In this document: positions 8,177 through 39,579 of the stretch, piece after piece
Layout: each line of letters opens with the position of its first letter
How positions within the stretch are numbered: the stretch's first letter is position 1
Sequence record: MG589383
Length of the DNA stretch: 64,000 bases
From: Shigella phage phi25-307
Direction: 5' to 3' (one strand)
Translations under genes and position numbers: made by a program
Notes under the pieces: generated by a model
Seen by the model: only the letters and a program-made list of their open reading frames with translations
Database searches by the model: none
What the model was told of the DNA's origin: nothing

Positions 8177-8206
8177 ATAGTATCACACATCCATGTGTTT
8201 GTAAAC
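8177..8206 (-). promoter_or_regulatory. T4-type early promoter (-35 GTTTAC, 18-nt spacer, -10 TACTAT)
   Basis: Minus-strand GTTTACAAACACATGGATGTGTGATACTAT; leader CAACAACATGAGGAAA precedes ATG 8147. Confidence 0.5.
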
Positions 8207-10293
8207 TATCCTTGGACAAATTTAAACGGAACTGATTCTAAATCCATTAAAGATGCTAACAATTTCAATCCTTTAGGAGCACTAGTTTTTTCTACAAATG
8301 AGGAGAACGATATCGGCTCATCTGATTCGATTTCACCCGTCATAGCAACCACCTCACCTGTTTCCATGAGAACATCACCGTCGTAAATGACAGCTTCGTC
8401 CAACTGGTCCGAGGACATGACTTCAGCTTGAATAAATTTAAGGTTGGATTCTAAACCTGCACCAGTGTCAGATGACGCATCTGTAATTTTATTTATCTGC
8501 AAGAGAATGCCTCTAGGCAAAATAATTTCTTGCTCATTAGGGTGATTACTCAACTGTCCAGGATAAATCACGTTAACTTTATGGGCGCCATCAATAGCCC
8601 ATCCAACGTTAACACGGATTTGGTCTGGTGCATGCATAGCTGTTCTTACTTGACTAGGAGAAATAGTAACACCTTCGTCATTATTGTCAATGTTAAGCTC
8701 TTTGCGAACTTCTTCAGGAGCAAGTCCAAGGGCAACGTTCTCTTTAAACCCACCGAAAATAATAGGAGCTAGTGAAGTGGAAACATAGTTTCTGAAGTAG
8801 AATACCTTATTTTTAACCATTGCTTCGTAAATAGGCATTCTGATAGACTGAGCTCTATATAACGTTAGTCCTTCAGGTAAACGGTCTCCATTTAAAAACG
8901 CTGAATCAAGACCATCAATAGCGCGTTTAACTTCATCTTCATCTGCAACATCGTAAAAATCTGGTTTATAACGACCTAACAGCATATTATTGATATCGGT
9001 ATACGCAGAAGAGGCATATTCACGAATAGCTCGTTTTTCAGCAACAGAGTATTGATTAGGGACCCGATTCATTGTTATATTAAAGGTGCCTCTAGCCGAT
9101 TCTCGTGCATAAGTATACATCACATTAGACAAGAACGCTGATTTACGTTGTTTCCAAGTTTTTTCAGATACTTCAGCTAAAACGTCGTCAGCCAGTTGGA
9201 AATTATCACGTCTAAAATCTTCAAACCATTCGTCTTTAATAGAGTCTGCAATTTCATTTGCAGCTTCAACAAAAGCAGTTAATGCTTTAACAGATGTTGT
9301 TTTTTCAGTTTTAATTTTCTTAGCAAACTTTTCTAAAGTTGGCTTAATAACACTACCATAAGAAACTTCATCAGCAAATCTAAAGGATTCATCAATACGA
9401 TTATAAATCTTATTTTCGATATCAGCAACTAAAGTGCCTTTTGCTGTGGACGATGCTTGGGCTAGTACGATTTCATATGCTTCAGGAAGTAATTCGGCTG
9501 TAGCTGGGCCACTAACTTCTTTAGCAGAATTTTCGTATTTCTGGAATAACTCACCTTCTTGTCGGTCAGCTTCTAAAGATTGACTTGCTGCAATAGCACG
9601 ACGAGAAATTTTAGTACGAGCAATAACAGGCTTATCTTTACGTTTTTCTTCTACAGCAGCAATAGAACCAGCGATAGCCGTTTCTTTGGTGACCTTTTCG
9701 CCAGTCTTTTTACTCACATAAACTTCGCCAACATCAGAATCTACTTTCGTGTACAACTCTGTGTTAATGTTAGGGATGCCTTTAATATCTTCAATGTTGG
9801 CATTTTTGCGAACCATCATCACATAGGTGTGTTTACCTGTGAATTGATACATTGCCGACAATACTTTAAAACGACCACCGGTTTTAGTAGAAACTAAACG
9901 AGCAAGAAGAGTTTGAAGCTGCTGTCCGCGTCCTTTCAATTTCTTGGTAGGGAATCGGAATAGAACTGCATCCATACGAAGAGCTTTAACCTGTTCATAT
10001 ACTGTATTGAAAATGGTGTTGATTGCATCAATAGGAGCAGGACCAAGGCCATTTTTCAATTCAGCGAGATTGCCCTTTTCAGATAGACTCATAATAACAA
10101 CATGAGCGTATTTGTCGCCAAGTTTAACTTGTTTTACAGCATCACCTTCGGAAAGGTAAGAGAATAAGCGAACTACGATGTTTGTATCGATATCACCAAT
10201 TTTCCAGACTTGTGGAACTTTAGCTTTAGGGTTCAAATTGACGACAGGAAGACTGCCTTCAGATTCAAACACTTCATTTAATTGTTCAGACAT
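8206..10293 (-). CDS. alt: ADP-ribosyltransferase Alt (695 aa)
   Basis: Collinear with T4 Alt (ISRRAIA.SQSLE, GITLYR.Q, YEAMVKN.VFYFRNFVSTSL, ILPRG, KFVQG C-terminus). Confidence 0.92.
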   Translation of the reverse strand: MSEQLNEVFESEGSLPVVNLNPKAKVPQVWKIGDIDTNIVVRLFSYLSEGDAVKQVKLGDKYAHVVIMSLSEKGNLAELKNGLGPAPIDAINTIFNTVYEQVKALRMDAVLFRFPTKKLKGRGQQLQTLLARLVSTKTGGRFKVLSAMYQFTGKHTYVMMVRKNANIEDIKGIPNINTELYTKVDSDVGEVYVSKKTGEKVTKETAIAGSIAAVEEKRKDKPVIARTKISRRAIAASQSLEADRQEGELFQKYENSAKEVSGPATAELLPEAYEIVLAQASSTAKGTLVADIENKIYNRIDESFRFADEVSYGSVIKPTLEKFAKKIKTEKTTSVKALTAFVEAANEIADSIKDEWFEDFRRDNFQLADDVLAEVSEKTWKQRKSAFLSNVMYTYARESARGTFNITMNRVPNQYSVAEKRAIREYASSAYTDINNMLLGRYKPDFYDVADEDEVKRAIDGLDSAFLNGDRLPEGLTLYRAQSIRMPIYEAMVKNKVFYFRNYVSTSLAPIIFGGFKENVALGLAPEEVRKELNIDNNDEGVTISPSQVRTAMHAPDQIRVNVGWAIDGAHKVNVIYPGQLSNHPNEQEIILPRGILLQINKITDASSDTGAGLESNLKFIQAEVMSSDQLDEAVIYDGDVLMETGEVVAMTGEIESDEPISFSSFVEKTSAPKGLKLLASLMDLESVPFKFVQG

Positions 10294-10329
10294 AGTGTTT
10301 TCCTTTTAGTAATAATTTATATTTATGCC

Positions 10330-10349
10330 AAAAAGAGCCCGAAGGCTCT
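10330..10349 (-). terminator. rho-independent terminator (stem AGAGCC/GGCTCT, UUCG loop, U-tract)
   Basis: Minus-strand AAGAGCC-TTCG-GGCTCTT-TTTGG immediately after ORF 10349-10537. Confidence 0.55.
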
Positions 10350-10537
10350 TAATCCACAATCGGGAGCAAAGTACGATAAACTTCAAAATTAGGGCCTTTT
10401 TCGTACCCATTAACGTTATCTACGAAAACCCGATACGAATTTTCATTAGGAAAATCTAATATAATCTGAGAGCAAGAGGTGGAAACATCTCCACCATCCT
10501 TCTTAGCTACAATAACTGTTTCTAAATAAGCTTTCAT
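10349..10537 (-). CDS. hypothetical small protein (62 aa), translationally coupled to ligase (TAATG overlap)
   Basis: ORF between ligase and alt; start ATG 10537 overlaps ligase stop; terminator hairpin at its 3-prime end. Confidence 0.45.
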   Translation of the reverse strand: MKAYLETVIVAKKDGGDVSTSCSQIILDFPNENSYRVFVDNVNGYEKGPNFEVYRTLLPIVD

Positions 10538-12030
10538 TATAAACCTGTCTGGGACCACGGTCCAAATACGTCTTCAAACGAATCCGCTTCTGTTTTATCA
10601 AAACGGAACCCTTTAATAATTGGAAGGAAAATACCTACAGTACCTTCACGGCCTTTAGAATGAACCCAACCATTACATTCACAATCAGCGATACGTCCAA
10701 TTAATTTACCTTCACGAGCTTCGGTCATTAATCGTTCACGGTCTAAATCATGACGCTCGTCTAAAGGAATAAGAACCTTTACACCGTCAACTGTTTTATG
10801 AGTTGTATCTTTAAACCCTGAACCACAATCGGTTGTAATACGACGACAACGTGATACGAGTTCGACACCACCTAATTTGTTAGGGTCTTTAGAGTGTTCA
10901 TAGTATCCTACAACTTCTAAAGCGATATCAATAACTTCTTTAAATTTAATTAGGTTCTTAGAGCGTTTGTTTTCCCAATATGAATCACGGTTTTTAAGGA
11001 TAATACCTTCAAGACCTTGGTCAACATATTTTTTATAAACTACTTTAGCTTCGTCAAGATTACGAACTAACTGATTTTCAATTGGTTCAATTCGCTTAAA
11101 GCCTTCAGCCATATTTTCAAGAGCAGCAAAACGAACATCGTATTTCTGACCTTTAATTTTGCCGTCAGAATAGACTTCATCTAAAGGAACATAGTCCCAG
11201 GCTTGAAGAACCATACCTTCCGCTTCTTTAGGAGAAATAGTCCCTTGAAGAGATTTATTTGCTAAACCATTTGAAGTGCTACGGTCTGCAACTTGTACTT
11301 CTTCGGATTCTTCATTATCACCAAATAAGAACGACAGGTCATTTCCTGAGCTCACAGCCTTTTTAATATCGAATGAATGATAAACTAATTCACCGTCGAT
11401 TAAAACCCCATTAGGGTGTCTTTCACGAGCTTCTTTAGTCATTTCCATTAGTTCATCCGCTAATAGAGTAAGACCATGGTATTCGTTACCAGCACGAGAA
11501 AAGAATTGAACACCATCATCGCGAACTTCAGCGAAACAACGAGCACCATCTGCTTTTAATTGGGCAAATGCGGGCCATTTAATATTTTTAGTAATCAATT
11601 TCTCATCATATGCAGATGCTAACATCTGTGGTTGCAATTGAATAAGTCCAGGCCACACCTTATTCGCGATAGACACTGAAGCACCTACTTCAAGGTCGCG
11701 CATCATTACACGACGAAGGACTTCTACATCATCAGGTTTACCATCAGCGATATAACCCATGAGCTCTTTAATTGCAGCATTACCGGTGAGTTTACGAGTG
11801 GCTAATGTGAACTCAATAAAATCCAACATGTCATCTAATTCAAGAAGACCATATGCTTGAGACCTTTCACCCGGTCCTGGCCATTTCTTAATATAATACT
11901 GGATACCACGTGCATATGTTAAACGATACACACGTTCAAGTAATTTGTTGTCCTTATTTTTCTTAAGGATTTCTTGTTTTGTTTTAGTAGAACCGATCGC
12001 AGCTATTTGGTTTAAAATATCTAAAATCAT
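10537..12030 (-). CDS. 30: ATP-dependent DNA ligase gp30 (497 aa)
   Basis: Collinear with T4 DNA ligase (MIL.ILN.IA.IGSTK.KQ, FAQLKADGARCFAEV, GVLIDGELV, ECECNGW). Confidence 0.94.
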   Translation of the reverse strand: MILDILNQIAAIGSTKTKQEILKKNKDNKLLERVYRLTYARGIQYYIKKWPGPGERSQAYGLLELDDMLDFIEFTLATRKLTGNAAIKELMGYIADGKPDDVEVLRRVMMRDLEVGASVSIANKVWPGLIQLQPQMLASAYDEKLITKNIKWPAFAQLKADGARCFAEVRDDGVQFFSRAGNEYHGLTLLADELMEMTKEARERHPNGVLIDGELVYHSFDIKKAVSSGNDLSFLFGDNEESEEVQVADRSTSNGLANKSLQGTISPKEAEGMVLQAWDYVPLDEVYSDGKIKGQKYDVRFAALENMAEGFKRIEPIENQLVRNLDEAKVVYKKYVDQGLEGIILKNRDSYWENKRSKNLIKFKEVIDIALEVVGYYEHSKDPNKLGGVELVSRCRRITTDCGSGFKDTTHKTVDGVKVLIPLDERHDLDRERLMTEAREGKLIGRIADCECNGWVHSKGREGTVGIFLPIIKGFRFDKTEADSFEDVFGPWSQTGL

Positions 12031-12296
12031 TTGATGTCCTCGATTTTGGTTACGGTTCTATTATAAGCCACTTCATCTAGAAGCGATTTCAGCGTTTTCT
12101 GATAAGTGGTAATCCATTTACCGAGACCTTCAACATAATATTCTGAAATGTAGATGAACCCTTGTTCAACACACTCTTTAAATATTTCTGCGTCTTTTAC
12201 TGAACGAAACATTGGCCAGTCTCGAAAGAACATGTTAACGTGACCGTAGTCACGCGTTGTGTTTTTGCCATCTGTAATATCATGAACTACAAACAT
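12027..12296 (-). CDS. hypothetical protein (89 aa)
   Basis: ORF in 30.x early block, 4-nt overlap with ligase start. Confidence 0.5.
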   Translation of the reverse strand: MFVVHDITDGKNTTRDYGHVNMFFRDWPMFRSVKDAEIFKECVEQGFIYISEYYVEGLGKWITTYQKTLKSLLDEVAYNRTVTKIEDIK

Positions 12297-12305
12297 AATT
12301 AACCC

Positions 12306-13130
12306 TTAACAATTTGTAGACCAAGTCCATTTGGACGAATCTAAAGGAAAGTTTTGAATCGTCCACCATGGCTGCATATCGGTTGGTCCTGGGGTTCGCC
12401 AGGTATATGGAGTACGTGTTGTCGAGGGGCCACCAATTTGATTAGGCCATGCACCTGGACTTGTTGTACCAGATTCTTTAAGCAAATCCGCCAATCGTTT
12501 TAAAAGGTCTTCACGATCTGAATCTGAATTATGCTCGGGTGGAACCAAACGAGATTCAATATCATCCCACGTGTGTACACGTTGTGCAGTACGAGGAATG
12601 GCATCACGTTCACCACGAGCCAACCAATAAATCGGTACATTAAGAATTTCTGCTGCATGGTCACAATGATGAGCTAAATCGTCAACGTAACAAATCACGT
12701 TATATTTTGTTTTAGCTAGTTCGAATAATTGTTCCTTTGAAGAATCATGACCACACATCATTACTTCAGAGAAAGCGCCTGGGAACAAAGCATTCAAATT
12801 AAATTGTCTATTCAATCGAGCATCAATTGAATCACCTAGCGCCGTCACGGCTACAAAATTATAGTCTTCTTTTAGTTTATTGATAACTCGAAGAGCATCC
12901 GAATAAGGCGCTAAGTAACGAATAAAATCAGAGCTATTATATTTTTCTATTAATTGTTTACCAAGGTTATCGTCGGTATTGAACAGTTTACCAGGAGAAA
13001 TAAATTTTTCGTCCTGAATCATTTTTAAAATATGTTCTAATGGAAGATTATATTTTTGGGCAAAATAAGGAAGTCCAGATTGCCAGCTTAAACATACACC
13101 ATCAATATCAGTCAAAATAGTAGGTTTCAT
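12306..13130 (-). CDS. HAD-superfamily hydrolase-like protein (274 aa)
   Basis: N-terminal ILTDIDGV motif (HAD motif I, DxDG[TV]); Trp/Pro-rich C-terminal tail of uncertain authenticity. Confidence 0.55.
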   Translation of the reverse strand: MKPTILTDIDGVCLSWQSGLPYFAQKYNLPLEHILKMIQDEKFISPGKLFNTDDNLGKQLIEKYNSSDFIRYLAPYSDALRVINKLKEDYNFVAVTALGDSIDARLNRQFNLNALFPGAFSEVMMCGHDSSKEQLFELAKTKYNVICYVDDLAHHCDHAAEILNVPIYWLARGERDAIPRTAQRVHTWDDIESRLVPPEHNSDSDREDLLKRLADLLKESGTTSPGAWPNQIGGPSTTRTPYTWRTPGPTDMQPWWTIQNFPLDSSKWTWSTNC

Positions 13131-13594
13131 AAAGAGTCTCTTAATAGGTTTAACACATCAATAAATTCAGCTTCGGTTAGTATTGTATCATCTTTTGTTA
13201 GACCGCTAGCCATGCTGTGCTTCAAAATTTTTCCTTTAGAGGCTTGTAAGGCATCACGAAACCCCTTGTTTTGGATCGCGGCTTCAAAATATGCATTTGT
13301 GTATAATTCTTTCCACGCTTCGGAGTATCTTGAAAATGGAACTCCTAACCAGAAGAGAGTTCCACGGTCCTGAGCTCTTGCATAAGACCTTCCAGCTTGC
13401 TGTGCAGCCAATCCAGACATCCCAAATATGCGTCTTTGTTGTTCAACATTTTTCACCTTACATCCTTGGAGAAATCCTTCAAGTCCTCCGAATTGAATAC
13501 CATCCATAACGAAAGGCCATTGAGCAAAGTTACTTAATGCACATGACGGCCATTTGAAATTGCTTCTTATTTCTAATTCAGACATCTTTAACAC
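13127..13594 (-). CDS. NADAR / YbiA-like domain protein (155 aa)
   Basis: LSNFAQWPFVMDGIQF resembles the YbiA/NADAR core motif (FSNFAAWP..DG); call from memory, not searched. Confidence 0.5.
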   Translation of the reverse strand: MLKMSELEIRSNFKWPSCALSNFAQWPFVMDGIQFGGLEGFLQGCKVKNVEQQRRIFGMSGLAAQQAGRSYARAQDRGTLFWLGVPFSRYSEAWKELYTNAYFEAAIQNKGFRDALQASKGKILKHSMASGLTKDDTILTEAEFIDVLNLLRDSL

Positions 13595-13796
13595 TTATAA
13601 TTTCAACATCAGCCCAATGGCCATATCCAGGTATACGGTCTTCGATAGATAAATTTCCGTCATTTTTAGGCATTTTAATTGACGTAACGTATGGTTCTAA
13701 ACGGTTTTCTGCATAATACGGAAAAACGTCTGTTACACGATAAGTAACTTCGATCATTTCCGTACCAAACAATTTCTGGATTAATTTATTCAACAT
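13578..13796 (-). CDS. hypothetical protein (72 aa)
   Basis: ORF in operon-like arrangement with overlapping starts/stops. Confidence 0.45.
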   Translation of the reverse strand: MLNKLIQKLFGTEMIEVTYRVTDVFPYYAENRLEPYVTSIKMPKNDGNLSIEDRIPGYGHWADVEIISVKDV

Positions 13797-13983
13797 GTTT
13801 CAACCCTTTAATAGGAGATAACTCTTTACCCATACGTATGTCAGAAGTCCAATCAACCCATTGAACAGCATACGCTTCATTGATAATTCCAGCGCCGGTT
13901 TTAAATTCAGGGAGAACTTTAAAAATCACCCCAGGAATTCCAACACCTTTTAATTGAACTGTTTGTGCTATTAAAAATTTCAT
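13786..13983 (-). CDS. hypothetical protein (65 aa)
   Basis: ORF preceded by early promoter at about 13995-14036. Confidence 0.45.
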   Translation of the reverse strand: MKFLIAQTVQLKGVGIPGVIFKVLPEFKTGAGIINEAYAVQWVDWTSDIRMGKELSPIKGLKHVE

Positions 13984-14037
13984 ATTTTTCCACTTACTAA
14001 AGAAATCATTATACTCTAATCCGTCCTTGGATGTAAA

Positions 14038-14652
14038 CTACTTAACGAAATTAATTTCTACTGGATGAACAACAGGTTGAGCAGTGATATATTGAGTAAT
14101 TGCTTTCATGACTAGAGCTTCAGAACCAGGATTTTTCTCAACGAATTCACGTGCTTGGTTATGAGCTTCAAGTTCACTTAGTAAACCACTTCGTTGGCAT
14201 CCACGGTCTTGAGTACCCTGTTCAGATAAAAAGACGACGATGTATTTTTCATCGTCATACGGTTTAGACGGTTGAGCAAATGTTCCTTTACTTCCAAAAG
14301 GAGAGTTATGACGCCACATCACGCCGTGAGGAGTTTCAACCTTCATATATTCGTGCGGGCCATTTTTCTTAGTTTCTTGATGTGGAACTTCGTGGACCTT
14401 AGGGTTAGGACATTCAATAAAATGCTCATCTAAATCGGTCGAGAATATTAAAGTAAAACAATTACTGAATTTACCAACACCTGCCTGATAAATTTTACCT
14501 TCAGAAGTTCTAATTTCACAAACCGAGCCGGCATCAGTAACTTCTAAAACTTCAAAAGGCTCGATAAGGTCATATGAGAACATGTTTTTAAGGCGTGGAG
14601 TAATATCCCCATTTTTAAAATTCATTTTATAAAAAGTATTAACTTTAAACAT
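14038..14652 (-). CDS. hypothetical protein (204 aa)
   Basis: Long ORF, SD GAGGAAATT upstream of ATG; no recognisable domain. Confidence 0.55.
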   Translation of the reverse strand: MFKVNTFYKMNFKNGDITPRLKNMFSYDLIEPFEVLEVTDAGSVCEIRTSEGKIYQAGVGKFSNCFTLIFSTDLDEHFIECPNPKVHEVPHQETKKNGPHEYMKVETPHGVMWRHNSPFGSKGTFAQPSKPYDDEKYIVVFLSEQGTQDRGCQRSGLLSELEAHNQAREFVEKNPGSEALVMKAITQYITAQPVVHPVEINFVK

Positions 14653-14687
14653 AATTTCCTCAGTGGGAGCCGAAGCTCCCAGTTAAA

Positions 14688-15053
14688 TTAGATATCGAAT
14701 TCGTTAAGAACTACATCAAAGATTGCTTCGAGATGTTCAGGTTTAGCTCGGTTACTCAGGATATGACGAATCCAAGTTTTAACCAGAAGTTTACGATTAT
14801 CACCGTTCCAGCAAGGATGAGTACCTAAATCACGTTGACGGAAATCGTCATCTAATGCAATTTTGAAGTTGGAACCTTCCATCGTGATTGAAACCGTGAT
14901 GCCATTTTCAAATCGCATATAAACGTAATTAGGAGTCATATACTGCTCAATTTCACATACTGAACCGTTATTATGTTTCCATAAGCAAATCGTATCAATA
15001 GAACCAGCAATACCGTTAGAAACATATTTACGTTCGAAGTTGATGTAGTTCAT
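14688..15053 (-). CDS. hypothetical protein (121 aa)
   Basis: ORF with early promoter (15092-15124) and SD GGAGAATAAA upstream. Confidence 0.5.
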   Translation of the reverse strand: MNYINFERKYVSNGIAGSIDTICLWKHNNGSVCEIEQYMTPNYVYMRFENGITVSITMEGSNFKIALDDDFRQRDLGTHPCWNGDNRKLLVKTWIRHILSNRAKPEHLEAIFDVVLNEFDI

Positions 15054-15091
15054 TTATTCTCCAGATGTTTAAGTTGTTTGTTGGTACAGGT

Positions 15092-15124
15092 CTATAATAA
15101 CAAAACCTGTACCAAAGTAAACAT
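15092..15124 (-). promoter_or_regulatory. T4-type early promoter with inverted repeat GGTACAGGT/ACCTGTACC flanking -10
   Basis: Minus-strand GTTTAC..17 nt..TATTAT; palindrome 15085-15112. Confidence 0.5.
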
Positions 15125-15126
15125 TT

Positions 15127-15498
15127 TTATTTGATTTTTGTCCACTTAGCTGAATCAATAACACCTTTTGCTTTAATCTTCTCGATTAATGACTCTGCAC
15201 GATTTCTAGCATTTTCGTACCATACAACATCTTCAGAGTAACCAGTCTCTTCATCTTCGTAAGTTTTAGAACGAATACAACCATAAACTGTAGAATTCAG
15301 ACGGTAAATTTCACCAGTGAAAAAGTTTTCGATTTCGATATGATAACAAAAATCGTCTGAAGGGCCATCAGGAGTTGTACAATAAACTACATCACCTTGA
15401 ACCGAACGAACCATCCACTGTAACTCGTTAACAACTTGAGATTTATATCCATCATGGTCACGGCATTTAATTGTAGCATTTAAATTGATAGTGTTCAT
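15127..15498 (-). CDS. hypothetical protein (123 aa)
   Basis: ORF with early promoter (15538-15570) and SD GGAGAATAAAA upstream. Confidence 0.5.
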   Translation of the reverse strand: MNTINLNATIKCRDHDGYKSQVVNELQWMVRSVQGDVVYCTTPDGPSDDFCYHIEIENFFTGEIYRLNSTVYGCIRSKTYEDEETGYSEDVVWYENARNRAESLIEKIKAKGVIDSAKWTKIK

Positions 15499-15537
15499 TT
15501 TATTCTCCGGTTGTTTTATTGATTAGGTGGTACAAGT

Positions 15538-15570
15538 CTATAGTAACACATCCTACAGGAGAGTAAACAT
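15538..15570 (-). promoter_or_regulatory. T4-type early promoter (-35 GTTTAC / -10 TACTAT)
   Basis: 17-nt spacer; upstream of ORF 15127-15498. Confidence 0.5.
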
Positions 15571-15600
15571 CTTTTTTAAACTTTTTCTGCCCTAAACGCA

Positions 15601-15623
15601 CAAAAGGGAGACCGAAGTCTCCC
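15601..15623 (-). terminator. rho-independent terminator (GGGAGAC-UUCG-GUCUCCC, U-tract)
   Basis: Minus-strand hairpin followed by TTTTG; after ORF 15629-15808. Confidence 0.55.
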
Positions 15624-15628
15624 TAAAA

Positions 15629-15808
15629 TTATGCAACAACCTTTCCAAAACGAGAAGCATCATCTCGAAGAACTGCACGTGCTCTGCGCATGATCTTCTC
15701 AACGGTTTGATTAATACGAGAGTTCGACCCACGCTTGTATCCAGCGCGTTTAGAGGTACCATCAACTTTCTTTTCAACTGCTTTCTTTGCTTTAGCTTGT
15801 TTTGCCAT
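15629..15808 (-). CDS. small lysine/arginine-rich protein (59 aa; not in ORF track)
   Basis: Hand-translated MAKQAKAKKAVEKKVDGTSKRAGYKRGSNSRINQTVEKIMRRARAVLRDDASRFGKVVA; followed by UUCG hairpin terminator 15606-15623. Confidence 0.4.
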   Translation of the reverse strand: MAKQAKAKKAVEKKVDGTSKRAGYKRGSNSRINQTVEKIMRRARAVLRDDASRFGKVVA

Positions 15809-16075
15809 TATAAATTCTCTTTAAATGAAAATGCAGGACTTATTGTCATTGCCTGCTCAAGCCCTCAAGGGGAATATAGGTTTTGGATATTTAACGACAG
15901 GATAACCATAAACCCGTCATCATACCGACCACGACTTAGACAGATAACCTTTTTCTGACGCGTGATAGTACAAAATACATTCAAGAGGTACACCGTAAAA
16001 TTGTCGGGGCGGTACTTCAAAACATACCGATTCGCAAATCGATAATCAGACAATTCGACGGCTCCTCGATTTAAC

Positions 16076-16324
16076 TTACTTCAGGGTAATAACAAAATGA
16101 CGAACTGCTTTACGTGCTGCAGAAGCCAGAGGCTTAGCATATTTCAATTCATCTTTCTGGACCAGGATATCGCGAAGATCGGCTTGTGCTGGATTCAGAT
16201 GTTTGAAATACTGTAAGATTTCAAGAGCTTCAGCTTCAACATCAATAGATGCGCCGTAATTGTCATGGCCATTATTCCATGCATGGCGTTGCAGTTCAAG
16301 AGCGTGTTGTAATTGTTTAGTCAT
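16076..16324 (-). CDS. rIII: lysis-inhibition accessory protein rIII (82 aa)
   Basis: Size and position immediately upstream of gene 31 as in T4; sequence recall of T4 rIII is approximate. Confidence 0.7.
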   Translation of the reverse strand: MTKQLQHALELQRHAWNNGHDNYGASIDVEAEALEILQYFKHLNPAQADLRDILVQKDELKYAKPLASAARKAVRHFVITLK

Positions 16325-16448
16325 TTTAAATTCTCAATTCGAGATAATATTTAGTAGCCACGTTCTTCTGAATTTCACCTTCTTTCGACAAGTCTCTCAG
16401 TTGTAGGCTACCGCTTAGAAGAATGTTCTCTTCATATAGTTATTTATA

Positions 16449-16781
16449 TCACTTATAAAGACACGGAATAGCTTTATAGTGGCATGTTACGAATTTCTGT
16501 TTAATTTCTTTAGGTTGTTTAAGTCCCAAAGCCACAAATGGATGCGGAACGTTTCGAATTTGACCAACTGGCAGAGAAGTCAAATCACCAACTTCAACAA
16601 AACCTTCAGGAACATCAGGACCTACAGAATGAACTACACATAGTTCAGGAACTTCACCTTGAACACGTTTACCAATCACAAGTCCTGATTCGGTAACTTC
16701 TTCATCACCTGCTTGAGCGGGTTCAGAAACCAGAATGACATATTCACCAACAGCACGAATTGGGAGTTGTACTTCAGACAT
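16449..16781 (-). CDS. 31: co-chaperonin gp31 (GroES analogue, 110 aa)
   Basis: Near-identical to T4 gp31 ([41 protein letters not shown]). Confidence 0.93.
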
Positions 16782-16810
16782 CTTATTTCCTTGTTGTTTG
16801 ACGATAGATT

Positions 16811-16838
16811 AATAATACTATACTATTCGTAAAGCATA
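16811..16838 (-). promoter_or_regulatory. candidate MotA-dependent middle promoter for gene 31 (MotA box ATGCTTTA, 12 nt, TATTAT)
   Basis: Minus-strand ATATGCTTTACGAATAGTATAGTATTATT about 30 nt upstream of ATG 16781. Confidence 0.35.
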
Positions 16839-17135
16839 TTACATAAGAAGCAAACGTTCCACCGGAGTACCATCAACCGAAATTACTTTATCAAGGCGGA
16901 AAGAACGCCACTGACCTAACTTGGTGTCGAATGCTCGAACTGATTCACGAGGTTCATAACGAACTTCTGTTGCCGGATTGTTATTTTCGTATTTGACTTC
17001 AAGTTCATCACGGGAGGCAAACATCGTACGAACATCACCGTTAGCCTTTTCAAATACAACACAATGAACGCCTACAGACAGAATAGTTTTAATACGTTCA
17101 CGAAGAACCATAGTTTCTTGTTCAGTTAAAATCAT
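16839..17135 (-). CDS. hypothetical protein (98 aa)
   Basis: ORF between cd and 31. Confidence 0.5.
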   Translation of the reverse strand: MILTEQETMVLRERIKTILSVGVHCVVFEKANGDVRTMFASRDELEVKYENNNPATEVRYEPRESVRAFDTKLGQWRSFRLDKVISVDGTPVERLLLM

Positions 17136-17137
17136 AA

Positions 17138-17719
17138 TTATTCACCACAAAAGTTTCGGATTTGTTCCCAATTCAGAGAACGAAGATTATTACGAGAGTA
17201 CTGAATTACTTCAATACCGGCTTGTTTTAGAATGTCTGCCCAATTTTCAGGAGATCTGTCATATAATTCTGCGTATACAACCTTTTTAATACCTGACTGC
17301 GTAATAGCTTTAGTGCAATCAGGACATGGAGAAAGTGTCGTATACAACGTAGCACCTTCAATAGAATTACCTTTACGAGCTGCAAACAAAATGGCATTCA
17401 ATTCAGCATGGATTTCGTTATTAGCAGACCATGCACTATGAGCGGCCCGATGTTCTTTAGCCAAAACAAAATTATCCACCCGTCCAAATGCTGTAGTGCC
17501 TTCTTTATGTCCGGCAACGATGACCGGGCTTGGTTTATTCTTCAACCAACCGTTTTCGGATGCATGTTCACAACAGTTAACGCCACCTGCTGGTGAGCCA
17601 TTATATCCAGTAGAGATAATGCGTCCATCTTTTTCAATGACGGCACCAACTTTCCATGAACAACATTTTGATTCTTGAGAAATCAGATATGCAATCTGAA
17701 GGTATGTGCTAGCTTTCAT
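17138..17719 (-). CDS. cd: dCMP deaminase (193 aa)
   Basis: Cytidine/dCMP deaminase zinc motifs HAELNA and PCPDC; size equals T4 Cd. Confidence 0.9.
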   Translation of the reverse strand: MKASTYLQIAYLISQESKCCSWKVGAVIEKDGRIISTGYNGSPAGGVNCCEHASENGWLKNKPSPVIVAGHKEGTTAFGRVDNFVLAKEHRAAHSAWSANNEIHAELNAILFAARKGNSIEGATLYTTLSPCPDCTKAITQSGIKKVVYAELYDRSPENWADILKQAGIEVIQYSRNNLRSLNWEQIRNFCGE

Positions 17720-18711
17720 TATTGAACCTTATTAATATAAGTTAACAGCTCTTTAGTTTGTTCCCAACCGATGCACGCATCGGTAACGGAAACGCCATAG
17801 GACATATTATCAGAAATTTTTTGATTTCCTTCATGTAGGAATGATTCTATCATAATTCCTTTGACCAAATCATTAGCTGCTAAATTTTTACCAATACCAA
17901 TTTGATTGCTATAATACCCATCAGCGTTTGCGTGGCTACAGTCAACCATTACATAATGATTCAGACCTAATGCACTTGCTTTGTTAGAAGCTTCTTGAAT
18001 ATCAGAAGAATGATAGTTCGGGCCGTTAGTCCCGCCACGCAATACGATATGCGTATTCTGATTACCTTCAGCTTCAACAATGCCTACAGTACCATCGACG
18101 TCCATACCCATATACCGATGAGGCCAGGCGGCACTATACATCGCGTCTGTAGCTACTTTAATAGAACCATTGGTTGCGTTCTTGAAGCCTACGCACATCG
18201 GTAGACCTGAAGCAATTTCACGATGTGTCTGACTTTCAGTCGTACGGGCGCCAATAGCAACCCATGAGAAAATACCAGAAAGATACTTAATCGTGAATGG
18301 GTCTAATACTTCAGTTGCTAATGGAAGTCCCATACGTAGAAGTTTACGACACAATGTTCGTGCAACTATAAGACCGTGGTTCATATCAAAACTTCCGTCA
18401 AGATATGGATCATTTACAAGACCTTTCCAACCTACGGTAGTTCGAGGCTTTTCAAAATAAACGCGCATCACTAACAGAACATTAGGAAGACGAGTTTGAA
18501 GTTCAGCCAGACGTTTGCCGTATTCAACAGCAGCAATAGGGTCATGAATTGAACAAGGACCTACAACAATAAGTTTGCGTGGGTCTTCACCGTTCATAAT
18601 CGAATTAACTTGTTCGCGATGAGAAGCCACTTGTGATGCGTAAGCTTCCGACAAAGGAATAATCTCAGCCAGTTCTTTTGGAGAAATAAGTTTTCTGACG
18701 ATAGGTAACAT
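17719..18711 (-). CDS. 3-deoxy-D-arabino-heptulosonate-7-phosphate (DAHP) synthase, class I-alpha AroG-like (330 aa)
   Basis: Motifs shared with E. coli AroG along the whole length: GPCSIHDP, VMRVYFEKPRTTVGWKGL.NDP, GARTTESQ.HRE.ASGL, VGFKN.T.G.IKVA.DA, LRGG, D.SHAN, ESFL.EGNQ, TDACIGWE. Confidence 0.85.
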   Translation of the reverse strand: MLPIVRKLISPKELAEIIPLSEAYASQVASHREQVNSIMNGEDPRKLIVVGPCSIHDPIAAVEYGKRLAELQTRLPNVLLVMRVYFEKPRTTVGWKGLVNDPYLDGSFDMNHGLIVARTLCRKLLRMGLPLATEVLDPFTIKYLSGIFSWVAIGARTTESQTHREIASGLPMCVGFKNATNGSIKVATDAMYSAAWPHRYMGMDVDGTVGIVEAEGNQNTHIVLRGGTNGPNYHSSDIQEASNKASALGLNHYVMVDCSHANADGYYSNQIGIGKNLAANDLVKGIMIESFLHEGNQKISDNMSYGVSVTDACIGWEQTKELLTYINKVQ

Positions 18712-18831
18712 AACAATCCTTAGGAGATATAAACAGATTCTGATTCAACAATACCTTTAACCGGATTAGACAGGCTAAGTTGGTAGTGCTCAGATTTATG
18801 ACCATTCTCGATAGTAATGAGATAGCTCTCA

Positions 18832-19068
18832 TTATAGTGTTCCATATACTCGAGTTGCTTCAACAAGACCATCACTGCCTAATTTAAGATTAGTAATTTG
18901 GTCACCATCTTTAGGATTAACGATTATGAGAAAAGAACGTGGAGATTCTTTAATAACTCGTAATGTTGCATCTTGGAAACGTTCAGACACTTTATTGATG
19001 AGTGCTTGAGCAAATTCTTTTACTTTAATCTGAAATTCGTGTACTGTAATTGGGTTTTCACTTAGCAT
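18832..19068 (-). CDS. hypothetical protein (78 aa)
   Basis: ORF with early promoter at about 19095-19125. Confidence 0.45.
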   Translation of the reverse strand: MLSENPITVHEFQIKVKEFAQALINKVSERFQDATLRVIKESPRSFLIIVNPKDGDQITNLKLGSDGLVEATRVYGTL

Positions 19069-19128
19069 TTCTATTTCCTCATTTGTTGGTAGAGTTATAG
19101 TATCACAACTCCACCATGTTGTAAACCA

Positions 19129-19404
19129 TTAAATTGCTTTGCATTCAATTTTTTGTGTACCGAAATTGATATCACATTGGATAACTAAATCGCCGTCAAG
19201 ATCAAATACCACTATGACGTGTGCAGACCCAGGGAGAAGAGTAATAGCAATAGAATCTACTTGGTCTGGGAGCAAAGCATTGAGTACATGAGTTAGTTGA
19301 GCATGAACTCTGAGTTCGGCTGCATTATCAAGCACTTCAAACATATTATTAGCAATAATCTGACTGAAGACTACCTTTACAATTTCAGAATAAGTTGGGA
19401 ACAT
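19129..19404 (-). CDS. hypothetical protein (91 aa)
   Basis: ORF in cd-pseT intergenic block. Confidence 0.45.
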   Translation of the reverse strand: MFPTYSEIVKVVFSQIIANNMFEVLDNAAELRVHAQLTHVLNALLPDQVDSIAITLLPGSAHVIVVFDLDGDLVIQCDINFGTQKIECKAI

Positions 19405-19411
19405 AATTACC

Positions 19412-19636
19412 TCAGTGTACAGTATTTACTTTAACTCGAACAACAAATCGCTCGGTCGGTTCACCTACAGGAACAAACTCTACATGATATTCACCTTTGT
19501 AACGAGTATTCAGATCATTACGAATTCCTGCGAGTTTGTTGATTAATGTAGGACTCATATTAAGTCCCACTAGTTTACGAAGCATTTTGTATGCTTCATC
19601 TTCGATTTCATGATGTTTATCGTACATAGTTTTCAT
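19412..19636 (-). CDS. hypothetical protein (74 aa)
   Basis: ORF in cd-pseT intergenic block. Confidence 0.45.
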   Translation of the reverse strand: MKTMYDKHHEIEDEAYKMLRKLVGLNMSPTLINKLAGIRNDLNTRYKGEYHVEFVPVGEPTERFVVRVKVNTVH

Positions 19637-19807
19637 TTAACCATTCAATTGCCTGGTCGACGTTATCAAATATACCGCCGTCCAACCATTCTTCATGTTC
19701 ATAGTCCAGCACATCAATACCGAACCGTCCATTTACTAAAGGCCATACTACAAACAAATATTCTTTATGCTGTTCGATGGCCTCAATCACTTCATATAAT
19801 CGTTTCA

Positions 19808-19808
<1 letters not shown>
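19617..19808 (-). CDS. hypothetical protein (63 aa)
   Basis: ORF abutting pseT. Confidence 0.4.
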
Positions 19809-20894
<1,086 letters not shown>

Positions 20895-20895
<1 letters not shown>

Positions 20896-21194
20896 TATTT
20901 TATTCCTAAGAAAATTTCAAGAATACGAATGTTATGCTCGCGCCGGTCTTTATTAATTTCAGCAACGTTTTTATTAATTGACGTACTTCTAACGTTTGAA
21001 GAAATAAATTTAATCATATGACTTTTGAGTTGTTGCAAATCCAACCCTTTTTCTTTAGCAGCTTTACGAAGAGCTTTACCTGCTTCATCTAGTGCCTTTG
21101 CTGCATCTTTGTCATAATTGCCGAGTGACATTCCACGACAGATATCAATATACTCATCAGACCGTTTGATGTAATTCTCTAGTAATGTTTTCAT
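20895..21194 (-). CDS. hypothetical protein (99 aa)
   Basis: ORF with early promoter at 21218-21250. Confidence 0.45.
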
Positions 21195-21251
21195 TTAGAT
21201 TTCCTCAATTATCCATAGGAGCATTATACTCTGCTCCTGAGAGTTTGTAAA

Positions 21252-21476
21252 CTATTTTACTAAAGATTCAATATACTCGTGAAGAGCTTTAGTCGCTACT
21301 GCCCACTTATTCTGATATTCATTTTTCAGATTAGCACGAGACTGAACTAACAATCGGTCATTAGTCGGAGGCAAAGATTCTAATCGTTGAATCTGGCGCC
21401 CATAAATCATAGCCGCCATTTCAGATTCATAGATAAGCCCTTTAATGTATTCATGTTGTTCTTTAGTCATTGGCAT
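21252..21476 (-). CDS. hypothetical protein (74 aa)
   Basis: ORF upstream of spanin pair. Confidence 0.4.
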   Translation of the reverse strand: MPMTKEQHEYIKGLIYESEMAAMIYGRQIQRLESLPPTNDRLLVQSRANLKNEYQNKWAVATKALHEYIESLVK

Positions 21477-21757
21477 TTTTCCTCTTTTAAACCACTACGA
21501 TAATAACATATCATAGTCTTCTGGTCATGTACATATCTTTTTACATCGTTTAACCAGATACGAAATTCTTGAGAGTCTTCAAACGGCATTCCAACCCACG
21601 GATTACCATCAATAACCTTTACTTGCCATTTCTGGTTATATTCAACAATAGATTCAGGCCATGGCGGATGTAAAGTTTCTTTAGGGCTTAAGGGCACATC
21701 CTGGGCACATCCAGCCAAAATACTAATAGATAATACAACTGCGGTTAATTTAATCAT
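21467..21757 (-). CDS. o-spanin-like outer-membrane lipoprotein (96 aa)
   Basis: Signal peptide with lipobox (MIKLTAVVLSISILAGC); position and size as T4 PseT.2. Confidence 0.6.
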   Translation of the reverse strand: MIKLTAVVLSISILAGCAQDVPLSPKETLHPPWPESIVEYNQKWQVKVIDGNPWVGMPFEDSQEFRIWLNDVKRYVHDQKTMICYYRSGLKEEKCQ

Positions 21758-22110
21758 TCTGAGAGCTTCCTGAGGTCTTCTGCAAAGGAATCGAAGGACT
21801 TGTTGATTTGTTTTTCGACCAATCCTGGTTTACTTGCCACCACGTTCTTCTTCTTCGAATCCTTACGGAGCTTTTCATTTTCGGCCTTAAGTTGGTCAAC
21901 TAAAACACGGTTCTTATAAGTCATTTCTTCGATTGACTGATACTGAACCTTGAAGTCGTCTAATACTTTAGCATTGTTTTTAGCGGTCTCTTTGACAGAA
22001 GCTAATTCAGTATTCAACGAATCAACTTTGTTGTTTAAGACAACTATTGTTACCGTAGAAACTAGAGCAAAAGCTGCTACTATAGTATAAATCGGATTTA
22101 CTTTAAGCAT
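21754..22110 (-). CDS. i-spanin-like protein (118 aa; N-terminal TM plus coiled coil)
   Basis: N-terminal TM (IYTIVAAFALVSTVTIVVL) then charged coiled-coil region; 4-nt overlap with the lipoprotein gene; position as T4 PseT.3. Confidence 0.6.
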   Translation of the reverse strand: MLKVNPIYTIVAAFALVSTVTIVVLNNKVDSLNTELASVKETAKNNAKVLDDFKVQYQSIEEMTYKNRVLVDQLKAENEKLRKDSKKKNVVASKPGLVEKQINKSFDSFAEDLRKLSE

Positions 22111-22598
22111 GTTTTAATAATCTCAATGATTTCATCTCGGGATAATCCATTGATAAGAACGGTTTTCGGACCATCGCACTGGATTTTGTACGATTCAAAC
22201 AATACACACAACTCTTCTGCTGTATGATACGGACTTGAAATTCCGAGGCGGTTGAATTTGTCGGTAAGAGGGTCGCAAATAATGTAGAATTTTATACCTG
22301 CGATATGTACATTTGGTTGACTAATATTAATGAACACATTAGCGTCATATTTAGTCAAATTGTTTTGAAGAAATTCTACCATGGCATTAACTGCTTCTGG
22401 CATCGCTTCACGTTTCTCTTCGGTGTAACGTGTTGAATATTCCTTTTGCTTTAACTTCTTTTTAGCATTTTTGGCCAGTGTAACACGTAGGTCAGTAAGA
22501 TAACCAACTGGACGTCCTTTCTTAAAGACCCTGATTCCATCTGAAGAATCACCAAATGCTGCCACAACCATATCGTTAGTAATCAATTGCATATTCAT
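22098..22598 (-). CDS. alc: Alc, inhibitor of host transcription on C-containing DNA (166 aa; start at internal ATG 22598)
   Basis: Begins MNMQLITNDM as T4 Alc; SD GAGGAG 8 nt upstream of ATG 22598; early promoter 22629-22658. Confidence 0.8.
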   Translation of the reverse strand: MNMQLITNDMVVAAFGDSSDGIRVFKKGRPVGYLTDLRVTLAKNAKKKLKQKEYSTRYTEEKREAMPEAVNAMVEFLQNNLTKYDANVFINISQPNVHIAGIKFYIICDPLTDKFNRLGISSPYHTAEELCVLFESYKIQCDGPKTVLINGLSRDEIIEIIKTCLK

Positions 22599-22628
22599 AA
22601 TTTTCTCCTCGTGATGTTGATAAAAGCC

Positions 22629-22658
22629 ATAGTAACACCATCCTTGGTGTTTGTAAAC
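22629..22658 (-). promoter_or_regulatory. T4-type early promoter upstream of alc
   Basis: Minus-strand GTTTACAAACACCAAGGATGGTGTTACTAT. Confidence 0.5.
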
Positions 22659-22660
22659 CA

Positions 22661-23794
<1,134 letters not shown>

Positions 23795-23808
23795 TCAGTT
23801 AGTTTTTT

Positions 23809-23841
23809 AAATTGTACCACAATCCTTGTGGCGTGTAAACT
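23809..23841 (-). promoter_or_regulatory. T4-type early promoter upstream of rnlA (-35 TTTACA / -10 TACAAT)
   Basis: 17-nt spacer; overlaps denA stop codon. Confidence 0.45.
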
Positions 23842-24250
23842 ACTTTTTCTTATGTTGGATATTCCAAGGCGGGTTGAACTTTTTGATAAAAAGCGGTTCT
23901 TCAAGGTCCATTGTTGCGATGGTCATTGAACCAAGTTCGTTGGTGACTGAAAGGTCAAAACATTGGCGGGCCCAGAATTCAACCTTTTTGCCTTGCATTA
24001 AGGCATCCAAAATCATAAGTGATTTTCTTGAATCTGAAGTCTGGTCTTTTCGATTTATGGCTGTTCGATAATAGTTAATGCGTTTCTTTAAATTCTTGGT
24101 TTTACCAATATACACAAGTTCGTCATCTATAGCAATAGCGTATATGACATTTTTCTTATTAGGGACATCAACTGTTTTAATTGTTGCATCTTCTAATAGC
24201 TCCAATTCTGTATATTTAATAAAGGAATATTCGGCGGCAATATCTTTCAT
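23840..24250 (-). CDS. denA: endonuclease II, GIY-YIG family (136 aa)
   Basis: Collinear with T4 DenA (YSFIKYTELEL, NVIYAIAI.DELVYIGKTKNL.KRINYYRTAINRKD, FNPPWNIQHKKK). Confidence 0.9.
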   Translation of the reverse strand: MKDIAAEYSFIKYTELELLEDATIKTVDVPNKKNVIYAIAIDDELVYIGKTKNLKKRINYYRTAINRKDQTSDSRKSLMILDALMQGKKVEFWARQCFDLSVTNELGSMTIATMDLEEPLFIKKFNPPWNIQHKKK

Positions 24251-24276
24251 AATAAAGTGGGACCGAAGTCCCGTCC

Positions 24277-25464: not shown

Positions 25465-25504
25465 TTAGTTTAACTCATCCATGAGTAAATTATAATCAAA
25501 AGTC

Positions 25505-27760: not shown

Positions 27761-27848
27761 ATATTCCTCAGTATAGGTTGATAGACATTACTCCAAACGG
27801 GATAGTATTTATCCCGTTAATTTATTATACAACTTTTAAACTGAAGCG

Positions 27849-28103: not shown

Positions 28104-28104
28104 T

Positions 28105-29790: not shown

Positions 29791-29792
29791 AA

Positions 29793-30056: not shown

Positions 30057-30102
30057 TTTTATTTGATAGGACTACTATAACATAGCCCTATCTTGTTATA
30101 AA

Positions 30103-30495: not shown

Positions 30496-30579
30496 TTTGA
30501 TTTCCTCATGTTGTTGATAGAACTATAATATCACATCTAGGGAAGAAGTAAACAACTTTTTTGGCAATTTACAGATACT

Positions 30580-30602: not shown

Positions 30603-30608
30603 GATTTA

Positions 30609-31575: not shown

Positions 31576-31622
31576 TGGTATGATTTATTTATAAAGTAAT
31601 TTTAACACACAAGAAATAAAGC

Positions 31623-39574: not shown

Positions 39575-39579
39575 ATTTA

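Follow-up and report, generated by a model that had tools for sequence, protein, structure and literature searches.

Four sites in a segment of the genome of Shigella phage phi25-307 are very probably immediate-early promoter cassettes of an RB69-like T-even phage, of the kind described in T4-type phages as promoter-early stem-loop (PeSL) elements. The segment, hereafter the window, is the whole stretch of 64,000 nucleotides analysed (sequence record MG589383), and the sites are designated S1 to S4 (Table 1). The PeSL reading had been proposed in an earlier note on this DNA, and it is supported on most of the sequence-testable points, namely the promoter, its placement, the stem at S3 and S4, and the breakpoints. 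Support appears most direct at S2 and good at S1 and S3, and S4 is assigned through its family membership.

Genomic context of the cassettes

By its sequence, the window is a segment of an RB69-like T-even (T4-type) phage genome belonging to the genus Mosigvirus. Identity to complete Mosigvirus genomes (e.g. S143_2, JS09, HX01, SA79RD and SF) is 96-99% around all four sites. The gene order is T4-like: the first part holds uvsY, baseplate genes, alt, ligase (30), the 30.x genes, rIII, 31, cd, pseT, alc, rnlA and denA, the middle nrdB/A, td, frd, 32, 59, 33, rnh and the tail fibre genes 34-38, and the last part t, asiA, motA, 52, ac, ndd, denB and rIIB, with cef, motB, dexA, dda and srd later. 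S1, S3, S4 and S2 fall respectively in the 30.x, pseT.x, ndd-denB and dexA-motB-cef regions, where the minus strand is the coding strand of early genes and the flanking ORFs match PHROGs of unknown function. All four thus occupy the small-ORF, hyperplastic type of region in which PeSLs are expected.

Sequence and anatomy of the four sites

Both copies of the roughly 40-bp promoter that the earlier note had paired are present on the minus strand, as S1 and S2, a few bases away from where they had been placed. The 33-mer quoted there, CATTATACTCTAATCCGTCCTTGGATGTAAACT, maps to 14007-14039 instead of 13995-14036, and its partner at about 60883-60914, the previously given range of 60866-60907 omitting the -35 hexamer (60908-60913). 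To call the copies almost identical was slightly generous, as they differ by a 1-nt indel and about three substitutions, the spacer after GTTTAC measuring 19 nt in S1 and 18 nt in S2. The second cassette, also said to occur at two loci, is found within the ranges given for it, with AGCAGAGTATAATGCTC on the minus strand at 21219-21235 and 49729-49745; S3 and S4 share 84% identity across 38 nt (repeat family D14 of the repeat search).

At each site, an A/T-rich upstream flank contains the stop codon of the upstream gene, and an SD and an ATG follow. The promoters can be compared with the T4/PST PeSL consensus TTTACW-N17-TAYWAT (Comeau et al. 2014, PMC4122927): S2 and S3 read TTTACA-N17-TATAAT, S4 reads TGTACA-N17-TATAAT, and S1 reads TTTACA-N18-TATAAT, with one spacer base extra. 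Only S1, S2 and S3 reach 11 of the 12 sigma-70 consensus positions in the 40 kb scanned. T4 early promoters have a consensus that extends beyond the standard elements, and most of them carry UP-like, -35, TGn and -10 elements (Hinton 2010, PMC2988021). The window's sites agree with them in the -35 (GTTTAC at S1-S3), the A-rich flank upstream and the -10; unlike those promoters, S1-S4 lack the typical TGn of the extended -10, and GAG precedes a perfect TATAAT. The annotation of SA79RD places promoters at the sites mapping to S1 and S3, the latter overlapping a predicted 'terminator', and has only a 'terminator' at the S4 site. The T4 RefSeq record has no annotated promoter features.

Table 1. 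Cassettes, their parts, neighbouring ORFs and junction overlaps in the window. Promoters are given from the start of the -35 to the end of the -10; z is the folding score of minus-strand RNA against shuffles.
Feature	Coordinates	Strand	Family	Stem and z	Remarks
S1 cassette	13981..14040	-	A	4-6 bp between boxes (ATCC..GGAT), z -0.9, not significant alone	Stop, -35, -10, ATG of gene 30.5 homologue; upstream stop TAG 14038-14040 overlapping -35; ATG 13981-13983
S1 promoter	14038..14008	-	A		5' to 3' GTTTAC (14038-14033)-atccaaggacggattagag-TATAAT (14013-14008)
S1 weak inverted repeat	14019-14032	-	A		ATCC..GGAT, between boxes
ORF beside S1	14038..14652	-			204 aa, unknown function (phrog_17531)
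S2 cassette	60851..60921	-	A	4-6 bp between boxes, z -0.5, not significant alone	dexA stop TAA 60919-60921; ATG of motB-like gene 60851-60853
S2 promoter	60913..60884	-	A		5' to 3' GTTTAC (60913-60908)-atccaaggatggatggag-TATAAT (60889-60884)
S2 weak hairpin	60893-60908	-	A		CATCCA-AGGA-TGGATG, between boxes
S2 junction overlap	60847..60913	-			67 bp; aligns to both copies flanking the extra ORF
S3 cassette	21192..21254	-	B	7 bp bracketing -10, z -2.2	pseT.1 stop TAG 21252-21254 overlapping -35; ATG of 99-aa ORF 21192-21194
S3 promoter	21252..21223	-	B		5' to 3' GTTTAC (21252-21247)-aaactctcaggagcagag-TATAAT (21228-21223)-gctcct
S3 hairpin	21217-21238	-	B		AGGAGCA-gagtataa-TGCTCCT, -10 in loop
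ORFs led by S3	20704..21194	-			99 aa (20895-21194) and 63 aa (20704-20895)
S4 cassette	49685..49767	-	B	8 bp bracketing -10, z -3.2, 0/200 shuffles as stable	ndd.1 stop TAA 49765-49767; ndd ATG 49685-49687
S4 promoter	49762..49733	-	B		5' to 3' TTGTAC (49762-49757)-aaactcttgagagcagag-TATAAT (49738-49733)-gctctca
S4 hairpin	49726-49749	-	B		TGAGAGCA-gagtataa-TGCTCTCA, -10 in loop
Cassette 50535	50535..50506	-	C	Brackets -10, z -2.8	ndd-denB variable region (span of both family-C cassettes there 49994..50535); hairpin TAGGACT../..AGTCCTA straddling -10, repeat family D2
Cassette 50023	50023..49994	-	C	Brackets -10, z -3.4	ndd-denB variable region; hairpin TAGGACT../..AGTCCTA straddling -10, repeat family D2
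Cassette 47455	47455..47427	-	D		Upstream of motA
47455 junction overlap	47379..47456	-			78 bp; upstream of motA
Cassette 59964	59964..59936	-	D		Upstream of cef; element 59905..59964
59964 junction overlap	59905-59941	-			37 bp
Cassette 45156	45156..45127	-
Cassette 34521	34521..34492	-
Cassette 30553	30553..30525	-	D
Cassette 30103	30103..30074	-	C
Cassette 23840	23840..23811	-	E	Between boxes, z -0.9, not significant alone
Cassette 22658	22658..22629	-	E	Between boxes, z -1.2, not significant alone
Cassette 19126	19126..19097	-	E	Brackets -10, z -4.2
Cassette 15568	15568..15540	-	D
Cassette 15122	15122..15094	-	D	Brackets -10, z -4.6
Cassette 8206	8206..8177	-	E

Cassette families in the window

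The earlier note had named a wider motif search as a check, and when carried out across the window it returned 18 minus-strand cassettes, each between a stop codon and an SD/ATG and all on the coding strand of early genes. S1-S4 make up two sub-families among them, A and B; three further families were recognised, of which C is characterised by TATAGT-AGTCCTA and D by TAYTAT-AGACCTATCAAA. The sub-families were recovered independently by the repeat search (D2, D3, D4, D6, D12, D14). The 14 cassettes other than S1-S4 have an imperfect -10 preceded by TGn, and for several of those in the span 8177..45156 the SA79RD annotation has a promoter, a terminator or both.

Specific patterns were compared with 100 shuffles. 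Allowing at most two mismatches, GTTTACATCCAAGGANGGAT has two matches against 0.00 expected, and the 32-nt S3/S4 pattern, with at most three mismatches, likewise has two against 0.00 expected. A stricter null, that any two early promoters resemble one another, was examined with the 153 pairs among the 18 cassettes: the S1-S2 spacer identity of 15/17 ranks at the top of these (mean 0.40, sd 0.14), and S3 and S4 agree at 14/17. Other pairs (30553/59964, 30103/50535, 15122/15568 and 50023/50535) are equally or more alike once the flanks are counted. A scan for the T-even early pattern (GTTTAC, 17-19 nt, TAnnnT, at most two mismatches) gave 35 matches on the minus strand, the 18 cassettes among them, versus 7 on the plus strand, with about 16 expected per strand. 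A generic sigma-70 scan, on the other hand, is not enriched overall (79 vs 63.9 +/- 7.6 and 55 vs 66.9 +/- 7.4 in shuffled sequence), so promoters cannot be established by such a count, and only its top matches and the T-even-specific pattern are informative.

Stem-loops

Minus-strand RNA was folded for S1-S4 and six other cassettes and scored against shuffles (Table 1). The stem-loop component of a PeSL is convincing at S3 and S4 and marginal at S1 and S2. A C-A-AGGA-T-G theme like the S1/S2 stem recurs at 22658 and 23840.

The family-B stem was followed further in IMG/VR, where a search for ACAAACTCT-N7-AGAGTATAAT returned 31 true T-even matches and a few unrelated chance matches. In a gap-free alignment of the 15 distinct 38-mers, 99.2% of the cells of the 8-bp stem are paired, and pairing falls to 36-49% when the 3' arm is slid as a control. 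Compensatory change on both sides affects four of the eight pairs, one position occurring as CG, GC and UA as well as wobble, and none of 500 shuffles matched the observed pairing or covariation. Among orthologous S3 copies in Mosigvirus relatives, one stem position can be followed from A-T to G.T to G-C. Neither the loop GAGTATAA nor the spacer start AAACTCT varies in family B, but the search pattern had fixed these columns. Because pairing survives base changes in the 15 copies, the family-B stem is selected as a structure, with the promoter hexamers also kept. The palindrome over the -10 reported by the earlier note is consequently backed by covariation, and its position is among the commonest recorded for PeSL stem-loops, along with that between the two boxes (Arbiol et al. 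2010, PMC2839356).

No T-run follows the stem at S3 or S4, where the sequence continues with gctcctATGGATAATTG and gctctcaTTGGATAATAA, and a simple terminator scan of the minus strand reported neither. Both fall outside the definition of an intrinsic terminator as a G/C-rich hairpin with a direct U-run; lacking a U-tract, these hairpins would be at best weak intrinsic terminators. The tetraloop hairpins, which the earlier note had cited together with the cassettes as a match to PeSLs, have to be set apart from the cassettes. C(UUCG)G tetraloop hairpins were reportedly described by Tuerk and colleagues in 1988 in T4 intercistronic regions, and like structures occur on the minus strand of the window at 14658-14675, 24259-24272, 47480-47497, 51351-51366, 55963-55980 and 58646-58661. 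Unlike the stems of S1-S4, they are separate, G/C-rich elements of terminator type, some followed by T-runs, and they lie outside the four cassettes. One of them is located just upstream of the 47455 cassette.

Reuse ahead of unrelated genes and comparison with T4

Across T-even genomes in IMG/VR, family B precedes at least 10 different first ORFs, with up to three copies per genome. These ORFs include ndd, motB and the 99-aa ORF of S3, together with others starting MTLRDNSF, MSQAIKN, MKVEAG, MTTYM, MNTLKK, MKILWYVE and MSKVFFG. Family A precedes three genes: the motB-like gene, the 30.5 homologue and an ORF starting MTRTEYINAF. Upstream of motB, T4 has a family-B element versus family A in the window phage.

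The gene content beside the cassettes differs from that of other T-even genomes to varying degrees. S1, together with an unrelated 204-aa ORF, stands in place of gene 30.6 of T4 and of its homologue in ECO111 5-P; both of these have a 30.6-type ORF (about 96 aa) in direct coupling with 30.5 and no promoter. In T4, pseT.1 directly abuts pseT, with no cassette at the position of S3, and neither of the ORFs led by S3 (99 and 63 aa) had a match among the T4 proteins encoded in the four compared regions. What follows the orthologous S3 cassette in other T-even genomes is either the 99-aa ORF directly or an added ORF of 160 or 153 aa, which sits exactly at the ATG of the S3-type cassette without a second cassette. 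The ndd.1-ndd spacer of T4 contains a GGCCG..CGGCC hairpin and lacks a family-B promoter, S4 occupying this place in the window; gene content at S4 is unchanged with respect to five Mosigvirus relatives and T4, and only the regulatory cassette differs from T4. Pfam assigned no function to the ORFs beside the cassettes.

Further counterparts are found elsewhere in T4. The motB.1-motB spacer holds GTTTACaaactcttgggaccagagTATAATggtccc, a promoter-like motif of the S3/S4 sub-family with a compensated stem, and the 30.8-30.7 and cd.3-cd.2 spacers hold promoter-like motifs seemingly orthologous to those at 15122 and 19126, with the palindrome kept.

Breakpoints among Mosigvirus relatives

The window was aligned with five relatives (LNA2, EP02SG, mar005p1, ECO111 5-P and SA79RD) and with phage SF. 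Three indel junctions, at S2, 59964 and 47455, have long overlaps (67, 37 and 78 bp) inside cassettes. At S2, an extra 164-aa ORF is present between dexA and the motB-like gene in SF, LNA2, EP02SG, mar005p1 and ECO111 5-P and is flanked by two promoter copies with a common core of about 30 bp and two mismatches. The single S2 of the window is a hybrid: up to and including the -35 it corresponds to the upstream copy, and beyond that, beginning with the spacer, to the downstream one. The tandem motB-like paralogues have a common C-terminal domain, and unequal crossing-over between them was considered as the cause of this indel and rejected, the junction mapping to the cassette. At 47455, an extra 71-aa ORF (SA79RD_264) is present in LNA2, EP02SG and SA79RD, flanked by two 86-bp copies that are ~90% identical from the -35 through ATG TCT AAA. 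At 59964, relatives have a further ORF, of 174 aa, which separates the motB-like gene from cef and lies between two cassette copies; in SF, its flanks are only about 70% identical apart from the SD/ATG. The three loci bear what we read as footprints of recombination. S3 and S4 have no indel among the five Mosigvirus relatives.

Cassettes are involved in 3-4 of 13 indel events, the count leaving out the tail-fibre stretch at 40.5-43.4 kb because its low-identity, patchy alignment gives no discrete indels to call. The other 9-10 lie elsewhere, and the idea that indels are all at cassettes was discarded: most are homing-endonuclease genes, events at ATG/SD microhomology or the like. Homing-endonuclease genes account for four events: two of the genes are present in the window (32278-32948 and 55991-56784), the other two in ECO111. 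Other events away from cassettes are a methyltransferase-like ORF in EP02SG and nrdA.1 in SA79RD; two ORF-precise deletions are at ATGA or SD/ATG microhomology (17723-18816 and 29553-29794), and the remaining differences are one of 193 bp within a gene (46201-46206) and one of 104 bp in non-coding DNA at about 16000. A rough binomial estimate gives P of about 0.002 for at least 3 of 13 junctions within cassettes, which cover ~2% of the window. Under a null of gene junctions, ~18% of which carry a cassette, P is about 0.02 for 4/7 and 0.12 for 3/7, a modest enrichment. The count is therefore secondary, and the stronger argument comes from the footprint itself, in which duplicated cassettes surround the variable ORF and the lone copy is a hybrid.

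The proposal that the flanking ORFs are exchangeable cargo is accordingly upheld by the comparison of gene content for the most part: at S2, 47455 and 59964, on one side at S1, and between genera and in other T-even genomes at S3, with nothing in its favour at S4. Loci with a PeSL on one side only have also been noted in other phages (Comeau et al. 2014, PMC4122927).

Alternative explanations

Chance matches in A/T-rich intergenic DNA are scarcely credible as an explanation. The generic sigma-70 scan does find about as many weak sites as shuffled sequence, but the absence of expected matches to either specific pattern in the 100 shuffles refutes chance as the source of the S1/S2 and S3/S4 repeats. 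The strand bias is strong, each cassette is preceded by a stop codon and followed by an SD/ATG, and the elements are conserved among relatives and occur in dozens of further T-even genomes. A less trivial objection is that the copies are alike only through a long and strong early-promoter consensus, comprising UP element, -35, spacer and -10, the indels being coincidental. T4 early promoters do share a consensus beyond the hexamers (Hinton 2010, PMC2988021), the 18 cassettes have GTTTAC and related -10 regions in common with a mean non-hexamer identity of 42%, and the enrichment of breakpoints is modest under the gene-junction null. We nevertheless consider this unlikely: a general consensus would not need spacers identical at 15/17 and 14/17 positions within sub-families, against a mean of 40%, and stem bases that vary in family B yet stay paired point to descent and structural constraint rather than to fixed contacts with RNA polymerase. 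The overlaps at three loci, moreover, map exactly onto duplicated cassettes flanking an extra ORF.

The S3/S4 palindromes could also be primarily rho-independent terminators or stabilisers of RNA 3' ends, with the hexamers incidental. WebGeSTer and TransTermHP, used in the SA79RD annotation, called terminators at S3, S4 and other cassette sites, the stem is under structural selection, and one PeSL stem-loop of RB49/phi1 acted as a terminator when assayed with a reporter (Arbiol et al. 2010, PMC2839356). As the main role this is very unlikely, given the lack of a T-run after the stems and the silence of the minus-strand terminator scan. The loop GAGTATAA and a perfect TATAAT, placed 18 nt downstream of GTTTAC or a similar hexamer, occur in 15/15 copies, the loop columns having been fixed by the search pattern; such constancy is difficult to account for if the promoter is not under selection too. 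Terminator and promoter readings are in any case compatible, PeSLs being defined as composites.

Comparison with known systems

In RB49/phi1, a PeSL consists of an A/T-rich region with an upstream stop codon, a strong sigma-70-like promoter, a stem-loop and an SD/ATG; promoter and terminator activity was shown for selected PeSLs, and mini-circles arise from exchange between neighbouring ones (Arbiol et al. 2010, PMC2839356). The concept was later extended to T4/PST and KVP40/nt-1, the T4/PST stems often being of the form AGNA..TCNT (Comeau et al. 2014, PMC4122927). RB69 is absent from both papers (PMC2839356, PMC4122927), and no paper pairing PeSLs with RB69 or Mosigvirus was found in the literature collection searched. 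The window's cassettes have the same intergenic composite order, with a stem-loop between the boxes or over the -10, and cluster among small ORFs of unknown function. Their promoters fit the T4/PST consensus, and their stems contain the AGNA..TCNT theme of PST. The extra ORF flanked by two copies in relatives, with a single hybrid where the ORF is missing, parallels ORF192 of RB49 compared with phi1. Differences lie in the stems, which in the window are of mixed A/T-G/C composition and 5-9 bp long, unlike the polyG/polyC stems of RB49, and which are at most marginal at S1 and S2; furthermore, the host genome is RB69-like.

A second point of reference is offered by the morons of lambdoid phages, a concept of Juhala and Hendrix that is also discussed in PMC2839356. 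Morons are units of promoter, gene and terminator lodged between other genes; illegitimate recombination is the presumed route of their arrival, and they have no repeated linker in common. The S3 module (a promoter and two small ORFs) and the S1 module (an ORF and a promoter) resemble such self-contained expression units, each lying between genes that are adjacent in a relative. Unlike morons, the cassettes of the window phage are repeated and would themselves supply the homology.

Proposed mechanism

Each cassette occupies the space between two early genes and comprises, in order, the upstream stop in an A/T-rich stretch, GTTTAC, a spacer of 17-19 nt, TATAAT, a leader of ~25-45 nt, an SD and an ATG. 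The host sigma-70 RNA polymerase is expected to initiate about 7 nt past the -10, which would give the downstream small gene its own early promoter. In the S3/S4 sub-family, the inverted repeat of 7-8 bp brackets the -10, with GAGTATAA as the loop. Since the cassette's own transcripts would start inside the 3' arm, the hairpin could form only in read-through RNA or in DNA, and following the PeSL model its likeliest role would lie in attenuating transcripts from upstream or marking where they end. As the same 30-90 bp cassette is present at many loci, the homology-driven recombination of the phage could cross over between copies, an event that would delete, insert or swap the intervening ORF. 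The recombination mechanism and a mini-circle intermediate are suggested by analogy with RB49/phi1 (Arbiol et al. 2010), and we infer that promoter, terminator and mini-circle activity would be found at the window's cassettes.

A more speculative reading, which we hold to be improbable, is that the family-B hairpin, with the -10 hexamer in its 8-nt loop, acts at the DNA level and not as a terminator, either as a small cruciform or single-strand hairpin aiding promoter opening or as a structure at which a structure-specific phage enzyme, e.g. endonuclease VII, cuts or pauses. It is prompted by the stem being compensated in all family-B copies examined, lacking a U-tract and being absent from the cassette's own transcript. 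Were enzyme cutting or pausing at the hairpin true, the cassette would be an active recombination hot spot and not a passive patch of homology.

Conclusions

The PeSL-type cassettes of the window are one more example of a described element, from a genus for which it had not yet been set out explicitly, and will not surprise a specialist. The present analysis contributes covariation in support of the stem that spans the -10, together with explicit junctions at hybrid cassettes; the covariation result leaves the picture of T4-type genome plasticity unchanged. For annotation, overlapping 'terminator plus promoter' calls in these genomes are best treated as one composite element. PeSL-style shuffling of small early genes would extend to the RB69-like coliphages, a group isolated widely with phage therapy and biocontrol in view, and cassette-bounded ORFs may be the likeliest differences between near-identical therapeutic phages.

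Gene-content and length differences from relatives

Several differences in gene content and length separate the window from related Mosigvirus genomes. Both homing-endonuclease-like ORFs (see table) are present in the window and missing from LNA2, EP02SG and mar005p1, with a junction overlap of only 5-6 bp. At the position of the tandem motB-like pair, relatives carry an array in which as many as four ORFs bear the annotation 'transcriptional regulator', and the motB C-terminal domain is also found in the extra 164-aa ORF of phage SF.

A 330-aa ORF at 17719-18711, for which there were zero matches among the T4 proteins compared, is missing from ECO111 5-P, where the deletion junction falls on the ATGA in which start and stop codons overlap and the homology amounts to 19 bp. 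Its homologue in SA79RD is annotated as a Tyr-sensitive DAHP synthase, which is a host-like aromatic amino-acid biosynthesis gene. Both mar005p1 and ECO111 5-P lack precisely the small ORF at 29553-29794, which is homologous to SA79RD_241; the junction there lies at the SD/ATG, and a promoter cassette plays no part in it.

In the opposite direction, 193 bp common to all five relatives are missing from the window at 46201-46206, within an arn-region ORF (SA79RD_261 homologue) that may be truncated or frameshifted in phi25-307. EP02SG (merged L007/L008) has an 863-bp insertion in the nrdA|nrdB spacer, opposite 25467-25512 of the window, which codes for a 273-aa methyltransferase-like ORF. Within a long tail-fibre gene, 35863-36838 holds several direct-repeat families (units of 44-48 nt, 61-89% identity), which presumably correspond to structural motifs that recur along the proximal fibre.

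Coordinates of genes and hairpins in the window
Feature	Position	Strand	Description
Homing-endonuclease-like ORF	32278-32948		GIY-YIG type, 227 aa
Homing-endonuclease-like ORF	55991-56784		HNH type, 265 aa
Tandem pair of motB-like genes	59969-60853		Pfam PF17613
UUCG-tetraloop hairpins, G/C-rich	14658-14675, 24259-24272, 47480-47497, 51351-51366, 55963-55980, 58646-58661	minus	

Promoter designs and tetraloop hairpins

Across all 18 early-promoter cassettes two designs can be distinguished, exemplified by 14008-14017 versus 50506-50515. Cassettes S1-S4, the four on which the analysis centred, have GAG directly before a perfect TATAAT and lack TGn, whereas the remaining 14 place TGn before an imperfect -10 (TACTAT, TATAGT, TATTAT or TACAAT). 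At 14038-14040, 21252-21254 and 23840-23842 the TAG stop of the upstream gene overlaps the first -35 base (TAGTTTAC), and the coding sequence extends straight into the promoter.

The earlier note had joined the reused cassettes with recurring tetraloop hairpins as PeSL elements. Such hairpins do occur, likely being the G/C-rich UUCG hairpins at six minus-strand sites, but they are separate from S1-S4. T-runs follow some of them, and as a group they probably represent either ordinary terminators of the T4 type or hairpins that stabilise RNA.
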